Origin: a virus
Strand: one strand, 5' to 3'
DNA: 19,287 bases
UHGV virus genome: UHGV-0298370
Shown: positions 4,648-19,287 of the stretch, piece after piece
How positions within the stretch are numbered: position 1 is the stretch's first letter
Layout of the letters: each line of letters opens with the position of its first letter
Made by a program: the position numbers and the translations under genes
Notes under the pieces: generated by a model
What the model was told of the DNA's origin: nothing
What the model saw: the letters and a program-made list of their open reading frames with translations, nothing else
Database searches by the model: none

Positions 4648-4993
4648 TCTCTGCTCCTGTTGATACTGAAAGGGACACAGGCACACCGTTATTCCGCCGT
4701 CCGGTCAGCTCCACCACCATTGAACCGTCAAAATTGCTGTTAATAGTGATGGAATCCAGCGTCAGCCGTGGCTCCCAGCGACTCAGTGCAACATACACAG
4801 CCGACATGACCTGCAGGCGTAATGCCGGATTTTGTGGCTGATCTATCAGTGCAGACAGCAGGGAACCATATTCCCGGCGGGCAATACGGCTACCCTGCGG
4901 TGTCAGCAGAATGTCCCGCACCGACTGGCGCAGATGATCAATATCAGTAATGACTTTGCCGCTGGTATTGTTCATCCCGCTATAAAGCGTCAT
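4634..4993 (-). CDS. W: baseplate protein gpW (gp25-like)
   Basis: 119 aa; MTLYSGMN...ITDIDHLRQSVRDILLTPQGSRIARREYGSLL..LIDQPQNPALRLQ resembles P2 gpW; ATG start, overlaps J start. Confidence 0.9.
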   Translation of the reverse strand: MTLYSGMNNTSGKVITDIDHLRQSVRDILLTPQGSRIARREYGSLLSALIDQPQNPALRLQVMSAVYVALSRWEPRLTLDSITINSNFDGSMVVELTGRRNNGVPVSLSVSTGAENGSD

Positions 4994-5568
4994 ACCGGGC
5001 CTCCGGTTGTATCGCCGCCTTTCAGGACGCCAGTATGCTGATGCGCATCAACCACGATCCCGTTAGAACTCATCGCTCCGCCGCCCTGGGTAACGCCACC
5101 ATTGATCACCACTTCGCTGTTAATGCGCGTGCGGTCAGCCTCCAGTACAAACTCACTGGTTTTCATGGTGATGTTGTCAGCAGCCTCAATGACCATTGAT
5201 TTGATGCCCCTGACATACCAGCGCCCGGTGGCGGGTTCGTATTCAAACCAGCCACCGTCAGGATGTTCTGTCACGCAGGCATCCGCCGACGTCGACGGTG
5301 GTGCGAACTGATTCGAATAGACAGCGGGCAGCGCAAAGGCGGTTTCCAGATTGCCGCCCAGACTCAGCAGCACCACCTGCTCACCTTCCGATGGTCGCCA
5401 CCATGTACGGGCATTCCCGGCACGCAGCGTCAGCCAGCTGATCCAGTTGGTTTCAAGCTCGCCCGTTTTCACCCGGCAAAGCCAGTTTTCCCTGTCCACT
5501 TCGGTGACTACCCCTGTGCGGATCAGGTTGGTGATAAGGCGCATGATTTCGGTTAATTGTGCGTTCAT
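4990..5568 (-). CDS. V: baseplate spike/assembly protein gpV
   Basis: 192 aa; ...WLTLRAGNARTWWRPSEGEQVVLLSLGGNLETAFALPAVYS...GGAMSSNGIVVDAHQHTGV matches P2 gpV; ATG start; ATGA overlap with W. Confidence 0.9.
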   Translation of the reverse strand: MNAQLTEIMRLITNLIRTGVVTEVDRENWLCRVKTGELETNWISWLTLRAGNARTWWRPSEGEQVVLLSLGGNLETAFALPAVYSNQFAPPSTSADACVTEHPDGGWFEYEPATGRWYVRGIKSMVIEAADNITMKTSEFVLEADRTRINSEVVINGGVTQGGGAMSSNGIVVDAHQHTGVLKGGDTTGGPV

Positions 5569-5614
5569 AGGGAAAGGTTGCCATCAGGGGAAGAAAGGCG
5601 GCAGTGCTGCAACT

Positions 5615-5632
5615 TGTATCAGTGCTGATACA
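5615..5632. promoter_or_regulatory. Ogr/Delta-type late promoter activator box (TGT-N12-ACA), likely P_V
   Basis: Perfect palindromic TGTATCAGTGCTGATACA in the 68-bp S-V intergenic gap; P2-family late promoters carry TGT-N12-ACA upstream of the start site. Box centre is ~55 bp upstream of the V ATG. Confidence 0.55.
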
Positions 5633-5636
5633 AAGA

Positions 5637-6083
5637 TCACCCCGCCAGCCATTGCAGAATCATGTCGCGGGTCATTGCCTCAACATCATCATTTACACCC
5701 AGAAGGCGACGCTCTGCGTAACGCACCTCCGGTCCCTTACGACTGACGCGATCTCGCAGGCCGTAATGGTGAACGCGGGCAATGCGCTGCACCTTGCCTT
5801 CAAACTGCACGCTGGCAGAGTCGGTGCTGGCGGCAGTTTTCAGGTATTTTGTGGTGCGCAGCTTTGCAAACATCTGACGTTTGATACGGCCTTTTTTACT
5901 GCGTGCTGTTACCCGTCGCGGTTCATAGCTGCTGCCGTCAGGGTTGCGCTGCATCCTGATATTCTGCTGCTGTGTCCGGCGAAGTTCCTGCGCCAGCTGG
6001 CGCATCATGCGGCTTCTCGAGGCTGGTTCCAGATTCGCCAGCAAGGCACTCAGCCAGTCGTCCACCTTCTGCAGTTCAGCCAC
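5637..6083 (-). CDS. S: tail completion protein gpS
   Basis: 148 aa, GTG start overlapping R stop; ...QQNPDGSSYEPR...KKGRIKRQMFAKLRT.K.....AS.DSA...F.G.VQRIARVHHYGLRDRVS..GPEVRYAER.LLG resembles P2 gpS. Confidence 0.85.
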   Translation of the reverse strand: MAELQKVDDWLSALLANLEPASRSRMMRQLAQELRRTQQQNIRMQRNPDGSSYEPRRVTARSKKGRIKRQMFAKLRTTKYLKTAASTDSASVQFEGKVQRIARVHHYGLRDRVSRKGPEVRYAERRLLGVNDDVEAMTRDMILQWLAG

Positions 6084-6507
6084 GTTTCACCGTCCACATT
6101 TCTTCAGGTGCATCAGGTTCCGCTATAGCTTCAACGCTCGACACACTGCCGTCAGTGCTGACCAGCACACGTTCCGTCAGTTGCAGGTTCAGGCTGATAT
6201 CACAGACATCGTTGCGCAGAATATCCACCTCAAAGGTGAATAGCTTTTCCCGTAACGCCGGGTTATTGATGGCATCGGGCTGGTTATCCCTCAGCCACAG
6301 CAAAACCGGGGCCATCAGCAGATTCTGGTCGCCGCTGAAATCCTCAATCACCACGTTGAGGGTATAATGGTACTCCCATGACATGGAGCTGGCCCCCGTG
6401 GCAACCAGCGAACCGTTATCCACAAACAGATGCAGTTTGTCCGGGTTATTGCGGACATAAGGCACCGCTTTATTGAGGGCGTGGCGCAGGGATTGTGGTT
6501 TGTTCAC
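6076..6507 (-). CDS. R: tail completion protein gpR
   Basis: Start set at GTG (VNKPQSLRHALNKAV...) with AGGAG SD ~8 nt upstream, rather than the upstream TTG of the ORF track; P2 gpR-like (…NPDKLHLFVDNGS…). Confidence 0.8.
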   Translation of the reverse strand: MNKPQSLRHALNKAVPYVRNNPDKLHLFVDNGSLVATGASSMSWEYHYTLNVVIEDFSGDQNLLMAPVLLWLRDNQPDAINNPALREKLFTFEVDILRNDVCDISLNLQLTERVLVSTDGSVSSVEAIAEPDAPEEMWTVKRG

Positions 6508-6760
6508 TGTTTCGCTCCTGACACGCAATAATCATGTCCACTTTGTCTGCACAGACCGCCCAGGCGGCCTCCGTTTCATCCAGCAACGCATTCAGATCAC
6601 CGTTAGTGCGCGGTGCTGCCTGCTCCAGCCGACACGGCGTCACTCGCGGACAACCACTGACGGTAAGCTGCACCTCCGGTGAGTGCCGGACGTTCCCGCA
6701 GCCGGATAATGTCAGCAGGCAAAGGAGTATCAGCCCAGTGGCGTAAATCCTCGTTCTCAC
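6470..6760 (-). CDS. lysC: LysC, Rz1-like outer-membrane lipoprotein spanin
   Basis: GTG start with GAGGA SD; N-terminal signal plus lipobox LLTLSGC; begins inside lysB in a different frame and extends past it into the start of R, as lysC does in P2. Confidence 0.7.
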   Translation of the reverse strand: MRTRIYATGLILLCLLTLSGCGNVRHSPEVQLTVSGCPRVTPCRLEQAAPRTNGDLNALLDETEAAWAVCADKVDMIIACQERNSEQTTIPAPRPQ

Positions 6761-7031
6761 GTTTCAGTTCCTCGATCCGGCGTTGTCGTTGTCTCAGCTG
6801 TGCGCTGGTCTGTTCTGCTTCGGCATAGAGCCGCGCCTGCTCCCGGTTATTGGTTTCAGTCAGAATGGACAGGCTGATAAGCTGGCTGTTGCTCTTTGCC
6901 AGTGCCTGGCTTTTGCTCTGCAGCTCGTTTGCCTGCGTGCTGATGGTCTGGCTGGCATCAGCCAGCCGCCACGTCTGCCAGCCCAGCGCCGCCAGTAATA
7001 ACGCCAGCACAACCAGCAGCAACCGGTTCAT
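6603..7031 (-). CDS. lysB: LysB, Rz-like inner-membrane spanin
   Basis: 142 aa; N-terminal TMD (LLLVVLALLLAALGW) followed by long charged coiled-coil-like region; ATG start overlapping lysA stop (ATGA). Confidence 0.8.
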   Translation of the reverse strand: MNRLLLVVLALLLAALGWQTWRLADASQTISTQANELQSKSQALAKSNSQLISLSILTETNNREQARLYAEAEQTSAQLRQRQRRIEELKRENEDLRHWADTPLPADIIRLRERPALTGGAAYRQWLSASDAVSAGAGSTAH

Positions 7032-7405
7032 GCTGCTACCTGTTGCGCCATCTGATTACGGGTGATCCAGAAGGCAATAACGGTCAGTAGATAAAAGACC
7101 AGGGTAATAGCCCACCCCGTCCATGCGAGACTTACAACAATCAGCAATCGCATCACCCAACAGATAAATACGTTTTCTTTTCGGGTAATTGTCTTCAGCA
7201 AAGATGCCCTTAACTCCTGCCAGAGCGGGCCATTCTGAATTAACGCAGCCAGTGCTACCGGAATTACCGCCCATGTCAGCAAACAGGCTACCCAAACGCC
7301 GGACGCTGCCAGTACCGGAAAGATCCCCTGCGGATACACCATTGCTGCGATTAACAGCGCCATCCATAACATCAGAAACAGCCCGCTGATTAATTTCTTT
7401 TTCAT
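7028..7405 (-). CDS. lysA: LysA, lysis-timing membrane protein
   Basis: Start set at ATG (MKKKLISGLFLMLW...) with GGGAG SD; multi-TMD small protein in the P2 lysA position between K and lysB. Confidence 0.7.
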   Translation of the reverse strand: MKKKLISGLFLMLWMALLIAAMVYPQGIFPVLAASGVWVACLLTWAVIPVALAALIQNGPLWQELRASLLKTITRKENVFICWVMRLLIVVSLAWTGWAITLVFYLLTVIAFWITRNQMAQQVAA

Positions 7406-7406
7406 T

Positions 7407-7919
7407 TCAGTTTGCTCCCTGTAAACACCAGGCCATCTCCCGCGCACGGCGGTTATCCAGCCCCTGATTAAACACACCTTTTACATAAACCCAGCGCGGC
7501 AACTGTCGGCACGCATCCGCCCAGCGCCGCTGATTGAGCAATTTCACCAGCGTGGAACTACAGGCATTGCCCGTCCCCACGTTGAAGGCAAACGACACCG
7601 TAGCGTCATACACCTTCTGTGGTGGCTGTTGCTTCACACACCTTTCCAGTGCCCGCTCCACACGCAGCACGTTGGAGATCAGCCCTTCTGCTGCCTGTCG
7701 TTCCGTGATTGTTTTGCCGGGAATGACGCCCGATGTATTACCAATGCCGTCGGTCCAGACACCCGCGCTGCACTGATACGGCTGCAGACGACAGCCTTCG
7801 TAATCGGCAATCAGTTTCAGCCCCTCCACGGAGGTGTGAAGCTGCTGAAAACCCGGCAGCGTGGCAGCAATAGCCAGCACGGCCCCGACAAGGCAGCGTT
7901 TAACGATTGATGGATTCAT
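7407..7919 (-). CDS. K: endolysin gpK, P1 Lyz-type SAR lysozyme
   Basis: 170 aa; catalytic region ...DYEGCRLQPYQCSAGVWTDGIGNT... (Glu-8aa-Asp-5aa-Thr lysozyme triad pattern); N-terminal weakly hydrophobic Gly/Ala-rich segment RCLVGAVLAIAATLPGF with Cys9, plus Cys43 and Cys50 flanking the catalytic Glu41, the pattern of signal-anchor-release endolysins such as P1 Lyz. Confidence 0.9.
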   Translation of the reverse strand: MNPSIVKRCLVGAVLAIAATLPGFQQLHTSVEGLKLIADYEGCRLQPYQCSAGVWTDGIGNTSGVIPGKTITERQAAEGLISNVLRVERALERCVKQQPPQKVYDATVSFAFNVGTGNACSSTLVKLLNQRRWADACRQLPRWVYVKGVFNQGLDNRRAREMAWCLQGAN

Positions 7920-8115
7920 AGTCCTCCCGCGAGATCTGCCCGTCGCGCAGAAGCTGGTAGGCTTTGTGTTTGTAGTACCAGTTGATAGCCAGCATCAGCA
8001 CACCAATCATCAGGCCGCCCAGCGTTGAGGCATCCTTGATGGACAAATCGCCCAGCCAGGCCAGCACGACGGCGATGCAATACGTGATAAAGGCGCTGAT
8101 TCGCTCAAGCGTCAT
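7900..8115 (-). CDS. Y: holin gpY (short, two predicted TMDs; possibly pinholin-like)
   Basis: 71 aa, two hydrophobic segments (ISAFITYCIAVVLAWLG and LGGLMIGVLMLAINWYY) and charged C-terminus; located between X and K as P2 Y. Confidence 0.7.
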   Translation of the reverse strand: MTLERISAFITYCIAVVLAWLGDLSIKDASTLGGLMIGVLMLAINWYYKHKAYQLLRDGQISREDYESINR

Positions 8116-8118
8116 AAT

Positions 8119-8322
8119 TCAGTCCCATAGCTGGACGGTCTGCACGGTGGTGGTGGTCGGTATGTCCGGCAGCTCCACCTGCAGCCCGTGAGGTAAAAAG
8201 GGGCCGTATTCGGCAAGCCCCGGATTTGCCTTCAGTACCTGCTCCGTGACACCCTGCGTGCGCCCGTAATGACGCCAGCAAAGCGCGTCCACCGTGTCAT
8301 ACTGATACGCACGCACTTTCAT
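8119..8322 (-). CDS. X: tail protein gpX
   Basis: 67 aa, same length as P2 gpX; ...YGRTQGVTEQVLKANPGLAEYGPFLPHGLQVELPDI... resembles P2 X. Confidence 0.85.
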   Translation of the reverse strand: MKVRAYQYDTVDALCWRHYGRTQGVTEQVLKANPGLAEYGPFLPHGLQVELPDIPTTTTVQTVQLWD

Positions 8323-8786
8323 CAGATAAGCTCCACTGTGCAGTGCGGCGCATCCTGCACCCGGCTGATGGCCCAGCGGGCGTCACGCCACAAATCACCG
8401 CTGGCTTCCGCCAGTTCTTCGCCTCGCTTCACACCGGATGCCGTGGCGTCATAGTCCTGGTATCGTTCGTTGAGCATGGCGCGTGCCCAGCAGTAAACCG
8501 CGTTGAAATAGTGCTGAATGCGCTCACTTTTCCCGTCCAGCTGTTCCGCCGGAACCTCTGCCAGCGAGGCATACCCCAGCATCTGCTGGCGTCTGCGAAA
8601 CTCATACAGCTCTGCGTTGACCTCCGAAATTGCCGACAGGGCAACCTGCTTTAAACGCGGCTGCGTCACCGTGCCGTCAGTGCGCATGACACTGCGAAAC
8701 TCCGACAGGTCCACATCAGGCCAGAACGGCGTATTTCTGATGATTTCCGCCTGTTCCGGTGCCTGTTCTGGCGCAACAAACTTCAT
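8322..8786 (-). CDS. L: head completion/stabilisation protein gpL
   Basis: Start set at ATG (MKFVAPEQ...) with AGGAG SD ~9 nt upstream; an upstream GTG at 8849 is possible. ...IRNTPFWPDVDLSEF... and ...LWRDARWAISRVQDAPHCTV... resemble P2 gpL. Confidence 0.85.
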   Translation of the reverse strand: MKFVAPEQAPEQAEIIRNTPFWPDVDLSEFRSVMRTDGTVTQPRLKQVALSAISEVNAELYEFRRRQQMLGYASLAEVPAEQLDGKSERIQHYFNAVYCWARAMLNERYQDYDATASGVKRGEELAEASGDLWRDARWAISRVQDAPHCTVELI

Positions 8787-8881
8787 GCTGCTTTCTCCTG
8801 AAATAGAGGGCGGTGGACGGGGTTTTGATGAGGCTGTGCCTTTCGCCACCCCGTGCCGCCCGTGCGCGGGGGCACGTTCTG

Positions 8882-9532
8882 TCAGCGGCTGTCATTGCGC
8901 AGTCTGCGCTCCAGCTGCTGTTTGTCTTTTTTCACGCCACAGCGGGGATCGAGCTGTAACGCATGGTTGAGATGATTAAGGGCGGACGCCGGATTGCTTT
9001 CACTCAGGACAGCGCCAATCGCTTTATGCAGACGCGCCCGTGACTGGTCCGGCATATCCAGACCGTCTGTCAGCTCCAGCGTCTGCAGCAACAGATCGGC
9101 ATCAAAGCCGGTGGCGGCAAGCATTGCGCTCTGCGCGGCGTCTGCCATTTCCTCTGCCAGCACGGTCTGCACGTTGCGGTTACCCAGCGGCATCACCCAG
9201 CCATGACGCAGGGCATGACGCCCGATCTCCAGCGCTCCGGCATAATCTCCGGCATCAATGCGCCACAGCATCACGTACATCAGCACGTCATCCTGTTGAG
9301 CGCCTCCGGCAGCCAGGACACCCTCTGCCCAGGCGGCGTACTTCGGCAGCAGCTCCACCTTGATTTCCGCTTTTTTGACCGTGGACTGAACGCCCTTGAG
9401 ACGGCGGCGGTCTTCCGCCAGTTGCAGCAGCATCAGGTCATAGCCCGATGCGTGGCGAACACTGCCGCCCTCGCGGGCGGCCTGTTCAGCCTGAACGCGC
9501 AGGCGATGCTGCCGTGCGGGACTCAGGCTCAT
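8882..9532 (-). CDS. M: terminase endonuclease (small) subunit gpM
   Basis: 216 aa; MSLSPARQHRLRV...LLPKYAAWAEGVLAAGGAQQDDVLMYVMLWRIDAGDYAGALEIGRHAL... closely parallels P2 gpM. Confidence 0.9.
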   Translation of the reverse strand: MSLSPARQHRLRVQAEQAAREGGSVRHASGYDLMLLQLAEDRRRLKGVQSTVKKAEIKVELLPKYAAWAEGVLAAGGAQQDDVLMYVMLWRIDAGDYAGALEIGRHALRHGWVMPLGNRNVQTVLAEEMADAAQSAMLAATGFDADLLLQTLELTDGLDMPDQSRARLHKAIGAVLSESNPASALNHLNHALQLDPRCGVKKDKQQLERRLRNDSR

Positions 9533-9535
9533 GGA

Positions 9536-10594
9536 TTACGCTCCGGTTTCTGCTGCAGCGGCGCTGAAATCGCCAATCTGGATGTTTTCCACCAGTGCGG
9601 CGCAGCGGTAGTCCTCAACCACATAGGCTTCGTTAACGGATTCAAAATTTTCAATCCGGTCACGTTTCGGGTTGTCGATAACTGAACGGCGGCGGGTATC
9701 TTCCTGCCAGTAGATGGACAGGTTATCCAGACGGGTGATCAGCAGCGCATTCGGCGGGAAGAACGGCGCACGCACCGCCTGCAGGCCACCCATGCGTTTC
9801 TGACTGATGATCATATCGGCAGCCAGTTTTTCACTGTTTTCCTGCTCTTTGTTGACCAGTGGGAAATACTTGTCAGACAACAGTTCACGACCGCAAATCA
9901 CCACCAGATCGTCATCGTCCTGGTAGACCACGTCGATAAGCTCATTGACGGCATCCATCACCACGGCGTCCAGGTTGGCATATTCGCCACCTTTCCCGAC
10001 TTTCACCGCACCCGGTGTGGTTTCACCGCCCGTGGTGGTGCTGCCCATGACGTGATCCGGTGCATCTTCACGGATTTTCTGCAGCCAGCCTTTATTCACA
10101 TCCTGCAGCAGCGGGTTTTCGCTACGGTTTGAGGTTTTCGCACGCTTCACGCCGTTAAAGCCGATCATGATGCGGTCCAGTGCCTGACGTTTCACGATCG
10201 CGTCACGAATACGCACCTGGAAATCCTGAAACTTCGCCCACAGGTCCAGCTTCGCGTAGGTCAGCACCGTGTCAAAGTTGGTCTGCTCGCATTTGTATTC
10301 CACATCGACCATCAGCGTCGGATCGACAGGCTCACGCTCTTTTGCGGTGGTATCAGTGGTTCCGGCAATGGTGCTGCCAACACCCAGCCCCAGCAGCTGA
10401 CCAGACTGCTCGGTCACTGGCGTGACGTTAATCAGCGTCAGGAAAGCGGCGGATTGCTGGATCTGGTCTTCCAGCGTCTGCTGCACAGACGGCTCCACGG
10501 TGAACTTGCTGGACAGTTCTTCAACTGCCACACCGTTCAGACGCGCCAGCTGCTGCAGGTAAGCGTTAAAAGCAAAGCGGGTATTCTTCTTCAT
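9536..10594 (-). CDS. N: major capsid protein gpN
   Basis: 352 aa; MKKNTRFAFNAYLQQLARLNGV...KFTVEPSVQQTL...GFNGVKRAKTSNRSENPLLQDV...VISQKRMGGLQAV... near-collinear with P2 gpN. Confidence 0.95.
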   Translation of the reverse strand: MKKNTRFAFNAYLQQLARLNGVAVEELSSKFTVEPSVQQTLEDQIQQSAAFLTLINVTPVTEQSGQLLGLGVGSTIAGTTDTTAKEREPVDPTLMVDVEYKCEQTNFDTVLTYAKLDLWAKFQDFQVRIRDAIVKRQALDRIMIGFNGVKRAKTSNRSENPLLQDVNKGWLQKIREDAPDHVMGSTTTGGETTPGAVKVGKGGEYANLDAVVMDAVNELIDVVYQDDDDLVVICGRELLSDKYFPLVNKEQENSEKLAADMIISQKRMGGLQAVRAPFFPPNALLITRLDNLSIYWQEDTRRRSVIDNPKRDRIENFESVNEAYVVEDYRCAALVENIQIGDFSAAAAETGA

Positions 10595-10610
10595 CAGGTT
10601 TTGTGCTCCA

Positions 10611-11444
10611 TCAGCAATTGGTCAGAGTGTCAGCGGGGGCGTTACCGCCTGTTGCACGCTGGCGGTAGTCCTGGCGGCTGTCTTCATGACTCAGCTTATT
10701 CACCAGTTCGTTAAAGGCGGTCTGCTGTGCCTGCAGGGCAGTCTCCAGCTCAGACAGACGTTCTTCCTGCTCAGACAGGGATTTTTCGGTGCGTGCGCTC
10801 AGGTTCTGCTGCTCAGTGGCGACCAGCTCCACGGCCTTATGCACATCAGAGAACCGGGCGTCATCGGACTGCTCTTTTTTGGTGAACAGCGCCGTGACAC
10901 GGGCAAACAGGGACGGTTTGTCATCCTGGATTTCTTCCAGTTCGATCACCGTTTCCTCTGCAGCGGTAAAGAGATTGGCAGGATTCTGCTTGCGGTTTGC
11001 CAGCGGGTTATGGGCTGCACTGGCGCTGAATGTCAGCATTTCAGTGCCCAGACTGGCAGGGTCATCAGTGGCAGCCAGGCCGACCAGGTAGGCTTTGCCC
11101 GTATCAGCGAACTTCGGGCTGACTTCCATAGAGGTGAATAATTTCTGGCCTTTTTTCACCAGTTCCACCAGGGACTCCGTTGGCTCAACGTCGGCATACA
11201 GCGCCATCTTGCCTGCCAGCGGACCTTCCGTGATTTCTTCAGCAAACAGCGCCGTCACCTTGCCGTAGCGGTTAAAGGTGCTGTCCGGCAGATAAGACTT
11301 GATGTGCTCAAGGTTAATCAGCGCGGTATACACCGCCGGGTTGTAGCTGGCTGCCATCTGTTCCAGCCATTCACGCTGGATTTCGCGTCCGTCGGTGGTG
11401 GCACCTTCCACCCCGATGCGAAAACGCTTTGCTTTCACTGTCAT
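10611..11444 (-). CDS. O: capsid scaffolding protein gpO
   Basis: 277 aa; N-terminal protease-like region MTVKAKRFRIGVEGATTDGREI...YNPAVYTALINLEH and coiled-coil C-terminus, as P2 gpO; first gene of the leftward late operon. Confidence 0.9.
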   Translation of the reverse strand: MTVKAKRFRIGVEGATTDGREIQREWLEQMAASYNPAVYTALINLEHIKSYLPDSTFNRYGKVTALFAEEITEGPLAGKMALYADVEPTESLVELVKKGQKLFTSMEVSPKFADTGKAYLVGLAATDDPASLGTEMLTFSASAAHNPLANRKQNPANLFTAAEETVIELEEIQDDKPSLFARVTALFTKKEQSDDARFSDVHKAVELVATEQQNLSARTEKSLSEQEERLSELETALQAQQTAFNELVNKLSHEDSRQDYRQRATGGNAPADTLTNC

Positions 11445-11522
11445 GAGCCGTGCTCCGTTAGAAAAAACTTACTGGAGCCTTATGGTTGCGGTGATGGGGC
11501 CAGTGAAACAATGCGCGGTATT

Positions 11523-11540
11523 TGTACCGACAACCACACA
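11523..11540. promoter_or_regulatory. Ogr/Delta-type late promoter box (TGT-N12-ACA) in divergent O/P intergenic region
   Basis: TGTACCGACAACCACACA in the 142-bp gap between the divergent O and P starts; single perfect match found by eye. Confidence 0.5.
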
Positions 11541-11586
11541 AACCGCAGGCGGGGAAAGCCTTCATTCAAGGCTGTAGGTTTGTGCC

Positions 11587-13353
11587 ATGAACACCACACT
11601 GACACCCGCAGATCTCGATCCCCGTCGGCAGGCCATGCTGCTGTACTTTCAGGGATACCGCGTAGCCCGCATTGCTGAAATGCTGGGCGAGAAAGTTGCA
11701 ACCGTTCACAGCTGGAAAAAACGCGACAAGTGGGGTGACTATGGGCCGCTGGATCAGATGCAGCTCACCACCGCCGCACGCTACTGCCAGCTCATTATGA
11801 AGGAGCACAAAGAAGGGAAAGATTTCAAAGAAATTGACCTGCTGGCGCGCCAGTCGGAGCGCCACGCGCGGATCGGCAAGTTTAACAATGGCGGTAACGA
11901 AGCCGACTTAAACCCTAACGTCGCCAACCGCAACAAAGGCCCGCGCCGTCAGCCGGAAAAGAATGTTTTCACCGATGAACAGATTGAGAAGCTGGAAGAA
12001 ATTTTCCATTCCTCCATGTTCAACTACCAGCGCCACTGGTGGGAAGCCGGAAAAACCAACCGCATCCGCAACCTGCTGAAGTCACGCCAGATCGGCGCGA
12101 CCTTTTACTTTGCCCGTGAAGCCCTGATTGACGCCCTGCTTACCGGACGTAACCAGATTTTCCTTTCTGCCAGTAAGGCACAGGCTCACGTCTTTAAGCA
12201 GTACATCATAGACTTCGCCAAAGAAGTCGAGGTGGAGCTGAAAGGCGATCCGATGGTGCTTCCTAACGGAGCCACGCTTTACTTCCTCGGCACCAATGCC
12301 CGCACGGCCCAGAGTTATCACGGCAACCTGTATCTGGATGAATATTTCTGGATACCGAAATTCCAGGAGCTGCGCAAAGTGGCTTCCGGTATGGCTATTC
12401 ACAAAAAATGGCGACAAACCTATTTTTCCACGCCATCCAGCCTGACACACAGTGCTTATCCGTTCTGGTCCGGTGCGCTGTTCAACCGTGGGCGCAACAA
12501 GGCCGACAAGGTGGACATCGACCTGTCCCACAGCAATCTGGCCCCCGGCCTGCTGTGCGCAGACGGGCAATACCGCCAGATAGTCACCGTGGAAGATGCG
12601 GTGCGCGGCGGCTGTAACCTGTTCGACCTTGACCAGTTGCGCATGGAGTACAGCCCGGACGAATACCAGAACCTGCTGATGTGCGAGTTTGTGGACGATC
12701 TCGCGTCCGTGTTCCCGCTCAGCGAGCTGCAGGCGTGCATGGTGGACAGCTGGGAAGTCTGGACCGACTTTCATGCACTGGCTCTGCGCCCGTTTGGCTG
12801 GCGCGAAGTGTGGATCGGTTATGACCCGGCAAAAGGTACGCAAAACGGCGACAGCGCCGGATGCGTAGTGGTGGCACCGCCAGCCGTGCCTGGTGGTAAG
12901 TTCCGCATTCTTGAGCGTCACCAGTGGCGTGGGATGGACTTCCGCGCCCAGGCTGACGCCATCAAAAAACTGACCGAGCAGTACAACGTGACCTACATCG
13001 GCATCGACTCGACAGGTGTCGGCCACGGGGTTTACGAGAACGTGAAAGCGTTTTTTCCAGCCGTCCGGGAGTTTGTCTATAACCCCAATGTTAAAAACGC
13101 CCTGGTACTCAAGGCCTACGACATTATCAGCCACCGCCGTCTGGAGTTTGACGCCGGACACACCGACATAGCGCAGTCATTCATGGCAATCCGTCGCGCC
13201 ACCACCGCGAGCGGCAACCGCCCAACCTATGAAGCCAGCCGCAGCGAAGAAGCCAGCCACGCCGATCTGGCCTGGGCAACGATGCACGCACTGTTTAACG
13301 AACCGCTGCAGGGCGAATCCGCCAATACCAGCAATATTGTGGAGATTTTTTGA
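11587..13353 (+). CDS. P: terminase ATPase (large) subunit gpP
   Basis: 588 aa; N-terminus MNTTLTPADLDPRRQAMLLYFQGYRVARIAEMLGE... and body match P2 gpP; divergent from O as in P2. Confidence 0.95.
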   Translation: MNTTLTPADLDPRRQAMLLYFQGYRVARIAEMLGEKVATVHSWKKRDKWGDYGPLDQMQLTTAARYCQLIMKEHKEGKDFKEIDLLARQSERHARIGKFNNGGNEADLNPNVANRNKGPRRQPEKNVFTDEQIEKLEEIFHSSMFNYQRHWWEAGKTNRIRNLLKSRQIGATFYFAREALIDALLTGRNQIFLSASKAQAHVFKQYIIDFAKEVEVELKGDPMVLPNGATLYFLGTNARTAQSYHGNLYLDEYFWIPKFQELRKVASGMAIHKKWRQTYFSTPSSLTHSAYPFWSGALFNRGRNKADKVDIDLSHSNLAPGLLCADGQYRQIVTVEDAVRGGCNLFDLDQLRMEYSPDEYQNLLMCEFVDDLASVFPLSELQACMVDSWEVWTDFHALALRPFGWREVWIGYDPAKGTQNGDSAGCVVVAPPAVPGGKFRILERHQWRGMDFRAQADAIKKLTEQYNVTYIGIDSTGVGHGVYENVKAFFPAVREFVYNPNVKNALVLKAYDIISHRRLEFDAGHTDIAQSFMAIRRATTASGNRPTYEASRSEEASHADLAWATMHALFNEPLQGESANTSNIVEIF

Positions 13354-14060
13354 TGCCCCCAATCCCAACTAACCTCATGACTATCGCGGGACTTCCGGTG
13401 GATAGCTTTTTCTTTGCTTACCAGTATGAGTGGAACACTGGCCCAAAGAGTAGAAACCGTGTACTCACAAAAATGCGCCAGGCAGGCGCGGATTTCTTTT
13501 TTTCCTATGAAGCCCTGAACGATGCACTGCATACCGGGCGTAACCAGATTTTCCTCTGCTGCAGCACAGCATCTGCGCAGGCAATCAAAGCCTGTGTATC
13601 AGCATTCTTAAGCCAGGCCGCAGCTTATACGCACACTGGAAAAATAAAATCAGGCAAAAGTCATCTGGAGCTTCCGAATGGTGCAGTAATTTATTTTACC
13701 GACCTCAGCAGTCTCACCTCCGCACTCAGTGGAAATGTTTACGTGTCAGAGTATGCCTGGAGTGAATCACCGAGAAATATGATTGCCATCGCTAAAGGGA
13801 TTTCTATGCACGCACACTACCACGCCACCTACTACACCACTCCCAGCCCTAACCCAGAGGCACGGCAGGAATATAAAAAGCTATGCAGAAACAACAGCGT
13901 AACCAGCATGGTGTTCACCGCAGATGACGCAGCAGCATCTGGAGCAATGTTGTTTACTGATAACTGGCTGAACGATATGAAAAAAGAATTATCAGAAGAG
14001 GACTGGAAAATGCTGTTTATGTGCGAATGGCCTCTCGCTAGCAAGGAACTGGCAGAATGA
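13353..14060 (+). CDS. terminase-ATPase-like paralog (truncated, diverged copy of gpP central region)
   Basis: ATG at 13353 overlaps the P stop (TGATG) and its stop overlaps the Q start (ATGA). Protein aligns by eye to gpP residues ~140-400 (FAYQYEWNTGPKSRNR / FNYQRHWWEAGKTNRIR; EALNDALHTGRNQIFL / EALIDALLTGRNQIFL; GNVYVSEYAW / GNLYLDEYFW). A 24-nt stretch at 13532-13555 is 23/24 identical to 12141-12164 in P. Confidence 0.6.
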   Translation: MPPIPTNLMTIAGLPVDSFFFAYQYEWNTGPKSRNRVLTKMRQAGADFFFSYEALNDALHTGRNQIFLCCSTASAQAIKACVSAFLSQAAAYTHTGKIKSGKSHLELPNGAVIYFTDLSSLTSALSGNVYVSEYAWSESPRNMIAIAKGISMHAHYHATYYTTPSPNPEARQEYKKLCRNNSVTSMVFTADDAAASGAMLFTDNWLNDMKKELSEEDWKMLFMCEWPLASKELAE

Positions 14061-15085
14061 GCAAACGTAAAAACACCAAGCAGGTAACAGTTGATCACGA
14101 CACAAAACCAAGCAACGGCCCAACGGCTGAGGCTTTCAGCTTTGGTGATCCCATCCCCGTGCTGGACCGCCGCGAACTGCTGGACTATGTGGAATGCGTA
14201 CAGATGGATCGCTGGTATGAGCCGCCCGTCAGCTTTAATGGACTGGCGCGCACCTTCCGCGCCGCCGTGCATCACAGTTCCCCGATTGCAGTAAAGTGCA
14301 ACATTCTGACCAGTACCTATATCCCTCATCCGCTGCTTAGCCAGCAGGCTTTTTCGCGTTTTGTGCAGGACTATCTGGTATTTGGTAACGCCTACCTGGA
14401 GAAACGCACGAACCGCTTTGGTGAAGTTATCGCCCTTGAGCCAGCTTTGGCAAAATACACCCGACGCGGATTAGACCTGGATACCTACTGGTTTGTGCAA
14501 TACGGTATGACAGCCCAGCCGTATCAGTTCACGAAAGGCAGCATTTTTCATCTGATGGAACCGGACATCAACCAGGAGATCTACGGCCTGCCAGGTTATC
14601 TTTCTGCCATCCCGTCAGCCCTGCTCAACGAGTCCGCCACACTGTTCCGCCGTAAGTATTACATCAACGGCAGCCATGCAGGTTTCATCATGTACATGAC
14701 CGATGCCGCGCAGAACCAAGAAGATGTGAACAACCTCCGCAACGCAATGAAAAGCGCCAAAGGGCCAGGCAACTTCCGCAACCTGTTTATGTACTCTCCT
14801 AACGGCAAAAAGGACGGGCTTCAGATTATCCCGTTGTCAGAAGTCGCGGCGAAGGATGAGTTTCTGAATATCAAGAACGTGAGTCGGGACGACATGATGG
14901 CGGCACACCGTGTGCCGCCGCAAATGATGGGGATAATGCCTAATAATGTTGGGGGCTTTGGAGATGTAGAGAAGGCGAGTAAAGTATTTGTACGTAATGA
15001 ATTATTGCCATTGCAAAAAAGATTACAAGAAATAAACAATTTCATAGAAGAAGGTGTTATTGAATTCCAAGAATACCATTTCTAA
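14057..15085 (+). CDS. Q: portal protein gpQ
   Basis: 342 aa; ...EAFSFGDPIPVLDRRELLDYVECVQMDRWYEPPVSFNGLARTFRAAVHHSSPI...NESATLFRRKYYINGSHAGFIMY...NGKKDGLQIIPLSEVAAKDEF... matches P2 gpQ. Confidence 0.95.
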   Translation: MSKRKNTKQVTVDHDTKPSNGPTAEAFSFGDPIPVLDRRELLDYVECVQMDRWYEPPVSFNGLARTFRAAVHHSSPIAVKCNILTSTYIPHPLLSQQAFSRFVQDYLVFGNAYLEKRTNRFGEVIALEPALAKYTRRGLDLDTYWFVQYGMTAQPYQFTKGSIFHLMEPDINQEIYGLPGYLSAIPSALLNESATLFRRKYYINGSHAGFIMYMTDAAQNQEDVNNLRNAMKSAKGPGNFRNLFMYSPNGKKDGLQIIPLSEVAAKDEFLNIKNVSRDDMMAAHRVPPQMMGIMPNNVGGFGDVEKASKVFVRNELLPLQKRLQEINNFIEEGVIEFQEYHF

Positions 15086-15087
15086 TT

Positions 15088-15118
15088 AAAAAAAAGGGAG
15101 GCAACCTCCCTTTTTTTT
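15088..15118. terminator. bidirectional rho-independent terminator between convergent Q and cargo gene
   Basis: A8-GGGAGG-CAA-CCTCCC-T8: 6-bp GC stem, 3-nt loop, flanked by A-run and T-run so it reads as a terminator on both strands; overlaps the TAA of the minus-strand cargo gene. Confidence 0.75.
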
Positions 15119-16883
15119 AAACATTATCGTATAACTCTTGTATTTTCGTTGGATTTGCAAAAAATCTTGCCGGATAGGCATTCGGGTAATTATCTTCAAT
15201 GTACTCTTCAGCACGTTGAATTAATGCACTTAATTCTTCGGAAAGATTTTTTTCATCTGGAACAAGAATTTCTGAGCTATTATGTATCCCAGAAACGTTG
15301 CTCAATAGTACAGACGCATAGTATCTATTACCATGCGTAATAATTAAATGCTTGCGACTATGGGTCGTTTTATCTACTGATAGTAATGTTTTACCGATCA
15401 ACTTATCTATAACTCTAAAATGTAGAACAGTATTGATAAGTTTTAAACCACTTAATCTTGGATTGAAAATAGTTTTATATAGAGAGCCTTCAAAATTTTC
15501 AAAAAACCTACCGCGATTTGATTTTAGTGTCGATACAACCGTATTATTTTTACTTAAACATGCGAGTGCATTGAGCGCCTCATCCAAGTCAATGACTTTC
15601 GTATTTGTCTGTGAATGATCTTCATCTGTTCTTAGTAACTGATATTGATATCCTTCAAGCACTAACTCCCTTGCCAATCTATGTTGATCTGCCTGCTGCG
15701 ATGCAAAATCTCTTCCCAATACTCTATTTTGGAAATTGTTAGCTTTTGTAATTGCATTTGCAGTTAAATTATCAGTATCATCATCTATAACAATGAATCT
15801 AGCTGGCACTTTGAGTCTATATATGTTTTCACCAAGCGCATCTTTACATGCGCCAATACTACTGACTGTTTGTGCACCATTAATGACACTTACATCACGA
15901 AAATCAAAAATCCCTCTCTCTATATTAGGAGCTGCGTTTCGTCTATGAGGAACAACTTCCTTAACCAGTACAGTAATCCCATTATTATAAAACCAAAACA
16001 TATCAGGATTATCTATAGCTGTCTTTTTTATTTCCTCATTCACTTCTGTTTTACCAAGCATATTCCTTATGTTTTTTGTAAATAATCGAGCACCATGCTC
16101 TTCCCACCATTCTGCAACTTGATCACCACTAATAGCCCCGTAAAAAGCTTGATATGGTTCATTCAAAAATCCAAAACGCTCAATTTCAACCCTGTTAAGA
16201 TCAATTTGATTTCGAGAGCCATTCTGTAACCAATGCATCATATCTTCAGAGGATATTAAATGAACCTGAAATCCCCAGTTCTCTTTAGGCTCATCCTCAG
16301 GTGTAAAAGCTGCAGCGTTTAATTGATATTGCCATTCCCGCATATCATTTAATATTTCCTCTGCAGCACCTTTTTTACCTGTATGCGCCATCGCAAAGAT
16401 GAACTTGTATTCAAAACTACTTAAAGCCGCACTTATTTCCCCGCTTTTATTTTGCAATATGGAATCAAATAATTCGTATCTTTCACTTTGTAGCTTCTCA
16501 CAAGCATCCTTAAAACACATAAAATCGGCTCTTGTCCAAGTGCCGTTTCCCGATTGGTGAAATTTTGATTGAACAACAACAACGATTTTTTCGTTATGGT
16601 TGATTGCTATTCCATCTATACCACCATCTTCACTACTATCACATACAGACTCCCCTGCATACTTATCATCCACACATCCTAACTGATACATAGTGAATGC
16701 AGCTAAAGCCCTGCTAGCCATTTTTACATCATAGTCTGCTTGGCCTGGTGCACACTCTCTTTTATGGATGAATTCTTCATATCTCTTACGTAATACAGAT
16801 CCTAGCCTCTGAGCCATAACCTGTGCTGTCGCAGGTGCAGCAATAGCATTATCTTCAAGCCGAATATCAGTTACAAAAGCCAC
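15117..16883 (-). CDS. Mrr-type nuclease-domain protein with AIPR-like architecture (candidate abortive-infection/defence protein)
   Basis: Long AT-rich ORF; start uncertain (TTG 16940 without SD, GTG 16883 with GGAGGG SD, ATG 16817). N-terminal motif SEDGGIDGIAINHNEKIVVVVQSKFH resembles the Mrr catalytic PD-(D/E)xK core (D-G-G-I-D ... Q-x-K). Size and layout are reminiscent of AIPR-family proteins; not verified by HMM. Confidence 0.65.
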   Translation of the reverse strand: MAFVTDIRLEDNAIAAPATAQVMAQRLGSVLRKRYEEFIHKRECAPGQADYDVKMASRALAAFTMYQLGCVDDKYAGESVCDSSEDGGIDGIAINHNEKIVVVVQSKFHQSGNGTWTRADFMCFKDACEKLQSERYELFDSILQNKSGEISAALSSFEYKFIFAMAHTGKKGAAEEILNDMREWQYQLNAAAFTPEDEPKENWGFQVHLISSEDMMHWLQNGSRNQIDLNRVEIERFGFLNEPYQAFYGAISGDQVAEWWEEHGARLFTKNIRNMLGKTEVNEEIKKTAIDNPDMFWFYNNGITVLVKEVVPHRRNAAPNIERGIFDFRDVSVINGAQTVSSIGACKDALGENIYRLKVPARFIVIDDDTDNLTANAITKANNFQNRVLGRDFASQQADQHRLARELVLEGYQYQLLRTDEDHSQTNTKVIDLDEALNALACLSKNNTVVSTLKSNRGRFFENFEGSLYKTIFNPRLSGLKLINTVLHFRVIDKLIGKTLLSVDKTTHSRKHLIITHGNRYYASVLLSNVSGIHNSSEILVPDEKNLSEELSALIQRAEEYIEDNYPNAYPARFFANPTKIQELYDNV

Positions 16884-16985
16884 AGTCCCTCCATAAAGAC
16901 ATCTGGTACAACTCAATGCTGGGAATAGTGCACATTTCAATGAGATAAATCCACTAATAATCTAGGATTTATGAGTTAGCGCGCG

Positions 16986-17004
16986 CTCGTATCCCCGCCA
17001 CGCC
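16986..17004 (-). other. putative cos site (cohesive-end sequence) of the P2-like phage
   Basis: Minus-strand sequence GGCGTGGCGGGGATACGAG followed by CGCGCGC resembles the P2/186 cohesive-end sequence as I recall it (P2: GGCGAGGCGGGGAAAGCAC TGCGCGC); orientation is correct, with the 5' end pointing toward Q. Depends on my recollection of the P2 cos. Confidence 0.45.
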
Positions 17005-17053
17005 TGCCCGCTTTGTGTAGTGGTTTTCATGCAGGTGCCTGATCCACGCAAAA

Positions 17054-17073
17054 GCCCGCCAGTTCTGGCGGGC
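17054..17073 (-). terminator. probable rho-independent terminator downstream of the DUF2971-like gene
   Basis: GCCCGCCAG-TT-CTGGCGGGC hairpin; on the minus strand it is followed by TTTTGCG; lies ~70 bp past the stop of the minus-strand gene 17140-18258. Confidence 0.5.
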
Positions 17074-17139
17074 CTTAGCAAAAACGATCCTCAAACGGTC
17101 ATGCAAATTCAGGCAGCATAGGCATGCACTGTTGTTAGG

Positions 17140-18258
17140 TTAGTTCGTAATGCCAATTTCCTTCAAAACTTTAGCCATTTCCGTCTGACTTAACTTGTTC
17201 CTGAACAAAGGGAAATTTTTCATTTTTTCCGCTCGTTGCCCTTTTGAAATAGTAATCTTTCCTGATGCTGATAACTCAGAGTCAAAAAAATAACATATTG
17301 TTGAATTTGAATTCTCCATATTTGACTTGATACAATTCCATATGCTTTCTTTTTTCATTTCACACATTCTAGGACCAAAAATGATCCCTTTAACAACATT
17401 AGCATCATGATGAAAAATATGTCCAATATTTCGATTTACGCGTCTTTGAACATGCCGCTCACTCCCTATTCCTGCATTTGCCTCTGGAATAAACATTCGA
17501 TATTCAGCTTCATATCTCCAAAATCTATTTTTAGTTAAAAATAACTCTGCAACATTTGCGCTTGGGTCTAGAAGTGAAACCTCTTTAGCCTGATTACTAT
17601 ATTTTATTTGCTTAACTGGAAAATTAAATTTATCTGATGAAAATAAATTTTCTCTTAGCTTCATTCCAGGATGTGGCACGCCATTAATATTAAAATCCTG
17701 CGTTTCATAAATCACAACACAACCACTAAAGCCTGCAGCATAATGCGCCCACATCATACGATCTAACGCATTAGCTGAAAATGACACACTGAATACTGCA
17801 GGAACTATTTTCCTATACAACCTTTCTTTGATACTGTTCTCGCAAAGTGAGACCAAAAATTGGCGTGGTTCAGGAATATTCCCATAAATAGCGGAATTAA
17901 TCACATTGATAGGTAGTAAACCATCATTTATGATCTTACGTATCTCATCAACGTGTGAGTCAAACAGGCTATCTAATGACTCAATGCTACTTTTTATTTT
18001 TTTTCCTCTAAAAATACGATTCAATCCCTTATGTATCTTCAAATTACTCAAATCTAATATGTGACTCAAATTTTCATAGGATTTATCGCAAGGAGAACGC
18101 AATAAAATATCCCATAATTTCAATTTATTATCAAAACGATAATCTATATTGAGATCATTAGGATCATTCAATTGCGCAGGAGCGGAAAAATATAATTCAT
18201 TATAACGAATAGCTTTCTCGAAGAAGAAGTCCGGACGGTAATACTTGAAAAGATACAT
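17140..18258 (-). CDS. DUF2971-like protein (candidate defence-associated protein of unknown mechanism)
   Basis: 372 aa, AT-rich; N-terminus MYLFKYYRPDFFFEKAIRYNELYFSAPAQLNDPND matches the hallmark DUF2971 N-terminal pattern (KY..........LYFS.P..xNDPxD); ATG start; terminator-like hairpin downstream. Confidence 0.7.
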   Translation of the reverse strand: MYLFKYYRPDFFFEKAIRYNELYFSAPAQLNDPNDLNIDYRFDNKLKLWDILLRSPCDKSYENLSHILDLSNLKIHKGLNRIFRGKKIKSSIESLDSLFDSHVDEIRKIINDGLLPINVINSAIYGNIPEPRQFLVSLCENSIKERLYRKIVPAVFSVSFSANALDRMMWAHYAAGFSGCVVIYETQDFNINGVPHPGMKLRENLFSSDKFNFPVKQIKYSNQAKEVSLLDPSANVAELFLTKNRFWRYEAEYRMFIPEANAGIGSERHVQRRVNRNIGHIFHHDANVVKGIIFGPRMCEMKKESIWNCIKSNMENSNSTICYFFDSELSASGKITISKGQRAEKMKNFPLFRNKLSQTEMAKVLKEIGITN

Positions 18259-18712
18259 GACATTACCTATAACATTGCAATATTAACAACCGTATGAAAA
18301 CGGTTTGATTGTATTGATAATATCCTATTCTGCATATACCACAGTGTAAAGATTAATTTTAAATACCATATCCAACAGTAAATCATGTATCGACCGCCAG
18401 ATAAGAAGCTTTTGAAAAACTTGGACAATAATTAATCAAAAGGTAAGAGATACTCTTCAAATACATGACGTTGGCTTCCTCTTTCGTGATAACTATCAAG
18501 ACCAAGTCCATTAGATAATGGACATCAAATATTCCAAGTCAATCCAAGAACAATCATCATAAGCTCTTCCCATCCTGTATCCTCTATCTCACTCTTTTGG
18601 ACATTGAAAGAAGCCCCTCTGACCGGGAATGATTGTTTCCAGCGTTTGACCACGATATACAATATGATATTTGATGTCTTTTGATCAGATGGCTAACGCC
18701 TCGCACAGCTCG

Positions 18713-18852
18713 TTGTTCAACCTTGCTGACGCCAGAAGCAAGTTCAGACGCCAGCAACGTTTCTTAATGCAGCCAGCTGTCGTCTTCCCACACCTTCTGC
18801 ATAATTTTCATCACTTGTTTTCTTTCTTCGTCCAGTTGCAGTCCGGTCAGTT
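18713..18852. repeat. direct repeat copy A (140 bp, truncated 3' gene fragment)
   Basis: 140 bp with 2 mismatches to 19148-19287; contains a minus-strand frame ending ...LTGLQLDEERKQVMKIMQKVWEDDSWLH-stop (stop 18765-18767) that is closed by a stop ~38 codons upstream, so this copy is a fragment. Confidence 0.7.
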
Positions 18853-19147
18853 CAACACCATTAGAGCTACCTTTACGGGCTGCAAATTACCTTTTGGGAT
18901 TTGTGATAGATACGAAAATCCTATTAGATGCTTGTTAGACCGGAAGCGCCACTTCGAACGAAAAGTAATGGCCACTTATGCCGGTTTAAAAGCCTTAACC
19001 TTGTATAGTTATTTGAATATTTTCTTCATTAACACCAAAGTATAGGGCTAGCCCTGCTTTTGCCTCCTGAAGTGTTAACGGCTTAACTACATTTTCTTCT
19101 TCTTCTTCGTACTCATCACCCCCCATGACTAATGCCCCACTAAACTA

Positions 19148-19287
19148 GTTGTTCAACGTTGCTGACGTCAGAAGCAAGTTCAGACGCCAGCAACGTTTCT
19201 TAATGCAGCCAGCTGTCGTCTTCCCACACCTTCTGCATAATTTTCATCACTTGTTTTCTTTCTTCGTCCAGTTGCAGTCCGGTCAGT
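19148..19287. repeat. direct repeat copy B (140 bp, continues beyond window end)
   Basis: Matches 18713-18852; truncated by the window edge. Confidence 0.7.
19200..19287 (-). CDS. 3' end of a gene entering from beyond the window (C-terminus ...LTGLQLDEERKQVMKIMQKVWEDDSWLH)
   Basis: Open minus-strand frame running off the window edge, stop codon TAA at 19200-19202; identity unknown. Confidence 0.4.
   Translation of the reverse strand, partial: LTGLQLDEERKQVMKIMQKVWEDDSWLH

Follow-up and report, generated by a model that had tools for sequence, protein, structure and literature searches.

AIPR/AbiU-family and DUF2971 genes on either side of cos at the cargo hotspot of a 186-like Escherichia coli prophage

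Two large AT-rich genes lie on either side of a cohesive-end site (cos) in UHGV virus genome UHGV-0298370, a 19,287-nucleotide (nt) stretch of DNA that is called the window throughout. Both are read from the minus strand; the first encodes a 588-amino acid (aa) protein of the AIPR/AbiU family and the second a 372-aa DUF2971 protein (PDC-S31 in PADLOC). An earlier reading of the letters, made without database searches (the original prediction), had put them forward as two candidate defence genes, and both do match defence-associated families. Window positions 2083-18900 align at 99.4% identity over 16.8 kb with a complete prophage of E. coli ARL09/232 (NZ_CP049967; locus L001, the other loci compared being labelled likewise), which encodes an integrase, CI, CII, Fil, the replication endonuclease A, a DinI-like protein, Q, P and P2-type capsid and tail proteins. 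By this gene complement, the window is assigned to an E. coli prophage of 186-like type (P2 family), whose late region it covers up to and into the cos-proximal hotspot. The portal gene Q (Pfam Phage_portal) occupies 14057-15085, gene A falls beyond the window's right end and is present in L001, and the locus lies between the two, adjoining cos.

Anatomy of the locus

The two genes and the elements around them are as follows.

14941-15085, plus strand: AT-rich 3' end of portal gene Q (last ~45 codons, G+C fraction (GC) 0.31); proposed left homology arm of the left-slot cassette
15086-15120, unstranded: bidirectional intrinsic terminator common to portal Q (plus) and the AIPR gene (minus), with 16-nt arms
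15117-16883, minus strand: AIPR/AbiU-family gene, 588 aa; predicted N-terminal PD-(D/E)xK (D..QxK) nuclease and C-terminal AIPR domain
16884-16978, minus strand: AT-rich, cassette-specific AIPR leader containing GGAGGG; the junction with the backbone is 7 nt past the cohesive end
16979-17131, unstranded: conserved GC-rich cos block (backbone), GC 0.582, aligning with the right end of phage 186
16986-17004, minus strand: 19-nt cohesive end GGCGTGGCGGGGATACGAG, 15 of whose 19 bases equal the annotated 186 cos
17048-17079, minus strand: GC-rich hairpin (11-bp GC stem) followed by UUUUG; likely terminator for DUF2971 and upstream read-through
17140-18258, minus strand: DUF2971/PDC-S31 gene, 372 aa, WP_021542067.1; predicted DarT/Tpt1-like ADP-ribosyltransferase fold
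18259-18688, minus strand: AT-rich upstream region of the DUF2971 cassette (GC 0.349), with a hairpin in the 5' untranslated region at 18288-18305 and no conserved open reading frame (ORF)
18322-18350, minus strand: DUF2971 promoter TTTACA-17-TAGGAT, found by promoter scans and conserved upstream of 63%-identical homologues

The island differs sharply from its surroundings in composition. The late-gene backbone (2200-14940) has a GC of 0.558, with a mean of 0.559, a standard deviation (sd) of 0.031 and a minimum of 0.463 over 400-nt segments, whereas the AIPR gene stands at 0.365 and the DUF2971 gene at 0.335, a drop of about 6 sd that is no chance effect. Codon usage follows suit, GC at third codon positions being 0.255 for AIPR and 0.287 for DUF2971, as against 0.59-0.70 for the terminase, portal and capsid genes. 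The plots of composition and codon usage that the original prediction had named as its check thus reveal the shift that it expected (0.34-0.37 in both cargo genes versus 0.56 in the backbone). Its claim of a switch to strongly AT-rich DNA is upheld, but the switch does not start just past the Q terminator: the portal gene is itself AT-rich from about 14941 onwards, its final 145 nt having a GC of 0.31 versus 0.53 for the rest of Q.

The ~150-bp GC-rich spacer that had been described as holding a cos-like sequence and a hairpin turns out to be a block of 153 bp, and its cos can be aligned to that of phage 186. The first 13 bases of GGCGTGGCGGGGATACGAG, the reverse complement of 16986-17004, are exactly those of the 186 cohesive end (NC_001317, bases 1-19). 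The cohesive end occupies the same position relative to its flanks as in 186, and the adjoining sequence, ...AAAGCGGGCA (...CACAAAGCGGGCA), aligns with the right physical end of 186. Because of the match at 15 of 19 bases and of this alignment of the flanks to the physical ends of 186, the cos-like sequence is identified as a genuine cos. Of 5426 complete E. coli genomes, 1430 have a homologous cos block. In virion DNA, by analogy with 186, the AIPR gene would begin ~100 bp from the left end and the DUF2971 gene would stop 136 bp from the right end, which agrees with the earlier suggestion of one gene at each end.

A terminator for each gene had also been proposed. A hairpin does stand 3' of each, but that of the AIPR gene is also the portal's and that of DUF2971 is part of the conserved cos block. 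The former (15086-15120) has arms that are 100% complementary, a 3-nt loop and A8/T8 flanks, and folds at -19.9 kcal/mol on both strands, with z scores of -7.9 and -5.0. The latter (17048-17079) folds at -27.6 kcal/mol in context, can be aligned with an inverted repeat of 186, GCGTCGCCAGAGCTGGCGCGGC, and belongs to the cos-flanking stretch that is homologous across all compared phages, 186 included. An Rfam scan of 14800-19287 returned just one sub-threshold match, on a terminator. As a detail of the first hairpin, the window has a perfect T8 where five other AIPR cassettes compared (L001, L004-L006) have TTTAGTTT, and its stem is longer.

Two slots and independent genes

The locus is a well-documented one. 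In the survey of Rousset et al. 2022 (PMC9122126), the gpA-gpQ hotspot was found to hold 1,650 gene arrangements in 18,150 loci, and WP_021542068 and WP_021542067, the products of the two genes discussed here, are both listed in its Table S5A in several arrangements. The idea that the window reaches a cos-proximal hotspot for anti-phage systems at the old/tin position of P2-like prophages is thereby confirmed, since it is the same locus with the same hypervariable content (old/tin; Rousset 2022; Odegrip 2006; Vassallo 2022). That this is a hotspot with rapidly swapped content is confirmed by Vassallo et al. 2022 and by a 2026 preprint, the latter also reporting AbiU in both P2 and P4. The window locus is therefore a typical and already catalogued filling of the hotspot and no new kind of system: the observation is real, its first interpretation is correct, and the case is an ordinary one. 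What can be added is a two-slot fine structure, the portal C-terminus and bidirectional terminator of the left cassette, and a promoter belonging to the DUF2971 gene.

While the published accounts consulted treat gpA-gpQ as one hotspot, alignments of the related loci indicate two exchangeable slots that are parted by the ~150-bp cos block and exchanged independently. In the left slot, between portal and cos, the cargo begins 7 nt past the cohesive end (cos plus CGCGCGC, then cargo) and reaches into the portal gene. The C-terminal ~35 residues of the portal co-vary with the cargo (AIPR, a 557-aa hypothetical protein or DprA) in L001 and L004-L008, and the terminator varies too, other left-slot cassettes having different hairpins at the position of 15086-15120. 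It follows that each left cassette brings a replacement portal C-terminus along with it. The right slot has one boundary inside the cos block and the other at the 3' end of the DinI-like gene. The window's exact cos-block allele tracks the DUF2971 cassette, with 26 records at least 99% identical to it versus 27 genomes carrying DUF2971. Each slot is probably swapped independently by homologous recombination, with the cos block and the 3' ends of the portal and DinI genes providing the arms.

Across 17 related loci, at least nine kinds of left-slot and at least ten kinds of right-slot content can be told apart. The left slot, filled in the window, is empty in reference P2 and 186. Among nine prophages sampled across the ranking of cos matches, however, the left slot is filled in eight, the right in seven and both in six, so that cargo on both sides of cos is the rule and no peculiarity. 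Left-slot cargo is uniform in direction: at 13 distinct loci (L001, L004-L009, L017, L021-L027, L029) all of it reads from cos towards the portal, convergent with the P-Q operon. Right-slot cargo is found in either orientation.

The same comparisons speak to whether the two genes belong together. Each occurs at 97.7-100% nucleotide identity in other E. coli prophages with differing partners across cos. The AIPR allele is present at 99.5% nucleotide identity or more in 12 complete genomes, where it faces DUF2971 (four genomes), a ComF-family gene with a hypothetical one (four), DarT with a macro-domain gene (one), or an HNH gene with an AAA ATPase (L006, joined by two more genomes whose matches follow the same pattern). 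An allele of 73% identity also fills this slot, beside a DUF6236 gene. The DUF2971 gene occurs in 27 genomes, with AIPR, the 557-aa hypothetical protein or DprA as its partner. Furthermore, homologues of both are encountered as lone genes elsewhere, those of AIPR in a Pseudomonas chromosome and a Vibrio integrase island, and those of DUF2971 in a lambdoid prophage accessory island, a P4-like element, an integrative and conjugative element (ICE) and a Pseudomonas chromosome.

Since each near-identical gene meets different neighbours across cos, the AIPR and DUF2971 genes are best described as independent single-gene units. Genomic evidence also suggests that DUF2971 works as a single gene: its homologues are isolated in five unrelated settings, the promoter is conserved ahead of those in the P4-like element and the ICE, and no partner ORF has a Pfam match. 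The original prediction had preferred two such units to an operon, and the shuffling of partners agrees with it. The opposite view, of one functional system split by cos in which, for instance, an AIPR sensor/nuclease and a DUF2971 effector are active only jointly, could appeal to their shared strand and to an excess of co-occurrence: the two are found together in four complete genomes, whereas an independent spread of the 12 AIPR and 27 DUF2971 carriers over 1430 prophage-bearing genomes would give ~0.2. Those four genomes, however, carry essentially one prophage (99.6-99.7% identical) and thus possibly reflect one origin, a hairpin terminator and the cos block separate the genes, and each is seen with unrelated partners or, as a homologue, alone in non-phage contexts. 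A split system is accordingly rated very improbable, and a single two-gene system was rejected on the shuffling evidence.

Protein families and proposed activities

The first gene product is identical to WP_021542068.1 of the closest genome. Both minus-strand ORFs of the original prediction exist and are intact, but the TTG start at 16940 that it gave the first was rejected in favour of GTG 16883, which is preceded by a GGAGGG Shine-Dalgarno sequence and yields 588 aa. The best-scoring homologues are mostly 588-609 aa long, residues 1-22 are conserved, and PGAP annotates the same start. The protein matches Pfam AIPR (PF10592) at 7e-35 (121.5 bits versus a cut-off of 25, profile positions 1-305 of 308) and PHROG 1841 at 7e-173. 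The PADLOC comparison that had been proposed for both proteins recovers AbiU for this one, at E 7.4e-25 and over nearly the full profile (positions 45-512 of 537), and PDC-S31 for the other, at E 3.1e-23. MzaE was considered and rejected as an identity, the NCBIfam MzaE score being 58 bits versus a cut-off of 1050 and no mzaABCD-type neighbours being present.

The AIPR N-terminus is predicted to adopt a nuclease fold of Mrr/MspJI type with its catalytic residues. The alignment covers 38 homologues, with Vibrio, Pseudomonas and cyanobacterial proteins among them; all are at least 52% identical to the window protein, and more than 100 positions are invariant, for example D82/D86/D90...Q105-S-K107, HTGK 167-170, NNG 300-302 and NGAQT 335-339. 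A Foldseek search of the AIPR model against the PDB gave no match at E<0.2, and profile searches with the AIPR and DUF2971 families against PDB sequences gave none either. A third, more distant member of the AIPR family, of 565 aa, occupies the left slot of another P2-like prophage (L029, 1958-3655); it is undetectable by blastn with the window gene, and an IS1 lies between it and cos.

The founding AIPR protein, AbiU (AbiUi) of Lactococcus lactis, is a distant homologue recognized by profile search only, whereas the gene described here belongs to a Gram-negative prophage. AbiU has a partner, AbiUii, which the window AIPR lacks. In Lactococcus, AbiU lowers plaquing by 10^-1 to 10^-2 and delays phage transcription. 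A closer relative is the AIPR protein of a P4 satellite, pFR77 from E. coli E1167, which is 33% identical over 400 aa and shares the D..QxK, HTG, NNGIT and NGAQT motifs. Its gene lies directly beside cos, with a junction of the same make (the 19-nt cohesive end and GCGCG precede the cargo), and points away from cos, but sits on a satellite where the window AIPR sits on a helper-type phage. The cos/cargo junction is in fact alike in P4 satellites and in the left slot of P2-like phages at large: a 19-nt end, GCGCG(C), then AT-rich cargo.

In the mechanism proposed for AIPR, a single polypeptide would both sense and act, with the C-terminal AIPR domain sensing or regulating and the N-terminal D..QxK nuclease of Mrr/MspJI type cutting nucleic acid. 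Phage gene expression could thereby be blocked in the manner of AbiU, or foreign DNA could undergo restriction. A more specific version of the latter makes AIPR a modification-dependent (type IV-like) restriction nuclease, and not an abortive-infection protein, that cuts modified phage DNA after its AIPR domain has read the DNA or its modification, as SRA-like domains do in MspJI and AspBHI. The MspJI/AspBHI-like nuclease hints at such an activity, and the phenotype of AbiU at abortive infection. On the other hand, no SRA-like or other known modified-base reader was detected in AIPR, its C-terminal domain found no fold match in the Foldseek search, and the weak protection and delayed transcription given by lactococcal AbiU fit classical restriction poorly. 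Type IV-like restriction is a possible reading of AIPR, if the less likely one.

The structural model of the second protein is nearest to the ADP-ribosyltransferases DarT and Tpt1, and has an ADP-ribosyltransferase fold with an ExE motif. Its 58 homologues, of ~370 aa, are from Gammaproteobacteria; invariant among them are R8, S157, S159, H172, Y173 and Y249-E250-x-E252-x-R254, among other residues. The likeness to DarT is one of structure. An hhalign comparison of the DUF2971 family with the DarT of a neighbouring slot gave a probability of 0.2%, hence no sequence similarity, and gene 2 has large extra helical and C-terminal regions. DarTG also includes the macro-domain antitoxin DarG, whereas no macro-domain or other partner ORF was found beside gene 2. 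Membership of DarTG was rejected on these two grounds, and small ORFs upstream of DUF2971 and in the spacer were rejected as antitoxins because they have no Pfam matches and are not conserved.

A functional parallel may be Aristaios, encoded on a Lactococcus plasmid, a single-gene abortive-infection DUF2971 protein with an ADP-ribosyltransferase fold that interferes with phage transcription. Like gene 2, which matches PDC-S31, it is a lone DUF2971 gene with this fold, but its product has 316 aa versus 372, and no pairwise similarity was detected by tblastn against plasmid records. Specifically, tblastn of DUF2971 against 72,556 plasmids (PLSDB) gave two weak matches only and no Lactococcus match at E<0.01. 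The DUF2971 protein is proposed to be an NAD+-dependent ADP-ribosyltransferase of the DarT/Tpt1 structural type that would modify phage (or host) nucleic acid; nucleic acid is the favoured substrate because DarT and Tpt1 act on nucleic acids and Aristaios disturbs phage transcription. Because no antitoxin accompanies it, the enzyme may be held in check by autoinhibition through its large helical insert (residues 46-150) and C-terminal domain.

It is quite probable, in our view, that the hotspot comprises two independently swapped slots with stand-alone AIPR and DUF2971 genes, which the prophage expresses against phages and which protect the lysogen; for the two genes themselves, this is the most likely role. 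We infer it because of family membership, location and accompanying genes. Several observations weigh against it. The match of gene 2 to Pfam DUF2971 is marginal (22.4 bits versus a cut-off of 22). No sigma-70-like AIPR promoter was found in the 95 bp from cos to the start, and none is conserved upstream of homologues. A literature search yielded no experiments on this AIPR subfamily or on DUF2971 proteins from enterobacteria, and no papers on PDC-S31. The only AIPR tested from these hotspots, that of pFR77, stands among the 'additional tested systems' of Rousset 2022 (PMC9122126, Table S2B) and was not validated on a panel of 8 phages. Finally, ~18% of DUF2971 proteins are predicted secreted effectors in a Legionella survey.

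The last two points also feed the view that the genes are not primarily anti-phage. DUF2971 would then be a toxin or an effector and AIPR a selfish module resembling a restriction system, and the two genes would stabilise the prophage by addiction or be aimed at other targets such as plasmids or host processes. Consistent with it, the hotspot also holds non-defence cargo, for example partition systems and a cytolethal distending toxin (Rousset 2022, PMC9122126). Most slot-mates, however, are recognised defence genes (DarTG, TIR, SieB, DprA/PRTase, HNH plus AAA), the protein carries no signal for secretion, AbiU and Aristaios of Lactococcus provide anti-phage precedents for both families, and a negative on a small phage panel is weak evidence. 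A chiefly non-defensive role therefore seems improbable beside that of anti-phage genes protecting the lysogen.

Possible transcription across cos and other features of the window

The DUF2971 promoter is conserved in the P4-like element and the ICE (L018, L020). It is the sole conserved part of the cassette's upstream region in homologous contexts, the small ORFs there having no Pfam matches. For AIPR, no Ogr-type late promoter motif (TGT-N12-ACA) was seen by eye. Just past the equivalent of the window's right end, at L001 20341-20356, a perfect LexA box, CTGTAAATATAAACAG, overlaps a TTTACA-17-TATACT promoter that drives an operon of a 62-aa ORF and the DinI-like gene. By analogy, this is the counterpart of the SOS promoter p95 of phage 186. 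The hairpin after DinI has no U-tract, and the next genes on this strand are DUF2971 and AIPR. From this arrangement, SOS-driven read-through into DUF2971 and, across cos, into AIPR is conceivable.

In the corresponding right slot, phage 186 carries orf97, which 'blocks 186 infection' when expressed from a plasmid, a point in favour of the anti-phage reading. This gene belongs to the LexA-controlled p95 (tum) operon and has the same slot and strand as DUF2971, downstream of DinI/tum and a leaky hairpin, but it is 732 bp long versus 1119 bp, and DUF2971 has its own conserved promoter besides. It is even imaginable, though unlikely, that AIPR has no promoter of its own and is transcribed only across sealed cos, from the DUF2971 unit and the LexA-controlled DinI operon. 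If so, the cassettes at the two genome ends would make up one transcription unit that spans cos and responds to DNA damage, and that would exist only in circular or integrated phage DNA and never in the linear virion genome. The uniform direction of the 13 left-slot cargos, from cos to portal, would fit a general rule of this kind.

The right end of the window carries traces of an exchange.

18689-18900, minus strand: truncated DinI-like fragment (C-terminal ~30 codons) with a downstream hairpin at 18719-18761; proposed right homology arm
18901-19144, unstranded: recombination scar with an inverted 245-bp remnant (18877-19121) of another right-slot cassette
19125-19287, minus strand: second DinI 3' end and hairpin, running off the window; a 163-nt direct repeat, 94% identical

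In this region (18689-19287), the first DinI copy is cut short by an in-frame stop and the remnant lies between the copies. The ~390-bp structure is not found in the four closest genomes. In seven of the eight other genomes that carry it, the 3' end of WP_000246368 matches the remnant at 100% identity, and the remnant's orientation relative to DinI is opposite to that in other P2-like prophages.

Two further features lie away from the island. Between terminase P and portal Q, a 236-aa ORF on the plus strand (13350-14060) encodes solely a terminase large-subunit N-terminal (ATPase) domain (Terminase_6N) and overlaps each neighbour by 4 nt. Phage 186 (1215-1961) and L001 share this ORF, whereas most sister prophages lack it (L004, L006-L008, L021 and others); it was rejected as cargo, being a backbone feature found in phage 186 too. 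In the tail-fibre region (746-1339, plus; 1311-1745, minus; 1747-3144, minus), two opposed Caudo_TAP assembly genes stand beside a tail-fibre gene, and positions 1-2082 cannot be aligned to L001, which carries a recombinase gene there. The region looks like an invertible or exchangeable host-range segment.

For the study of phage resistance, the locus provides two compact candidate genes whose predicted catalytic residues can be mutated: a widely conserved AIPR gene of 588 aa, from a family whose AbiU was described more than 20 years ago, and a DarT-like DUF2971 gene that goes without an antitoxin. Islands of this kind can be spotted by reading sequence for composition and cos context, and the fine structure of the hotspot may aid the automatic delimitation of its cassettes. 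Taken together, the two slots, the cassettes that bear a portal C-terminus and the cos junction identical to that of P4 may help explain how defence genes are swapped so fast.

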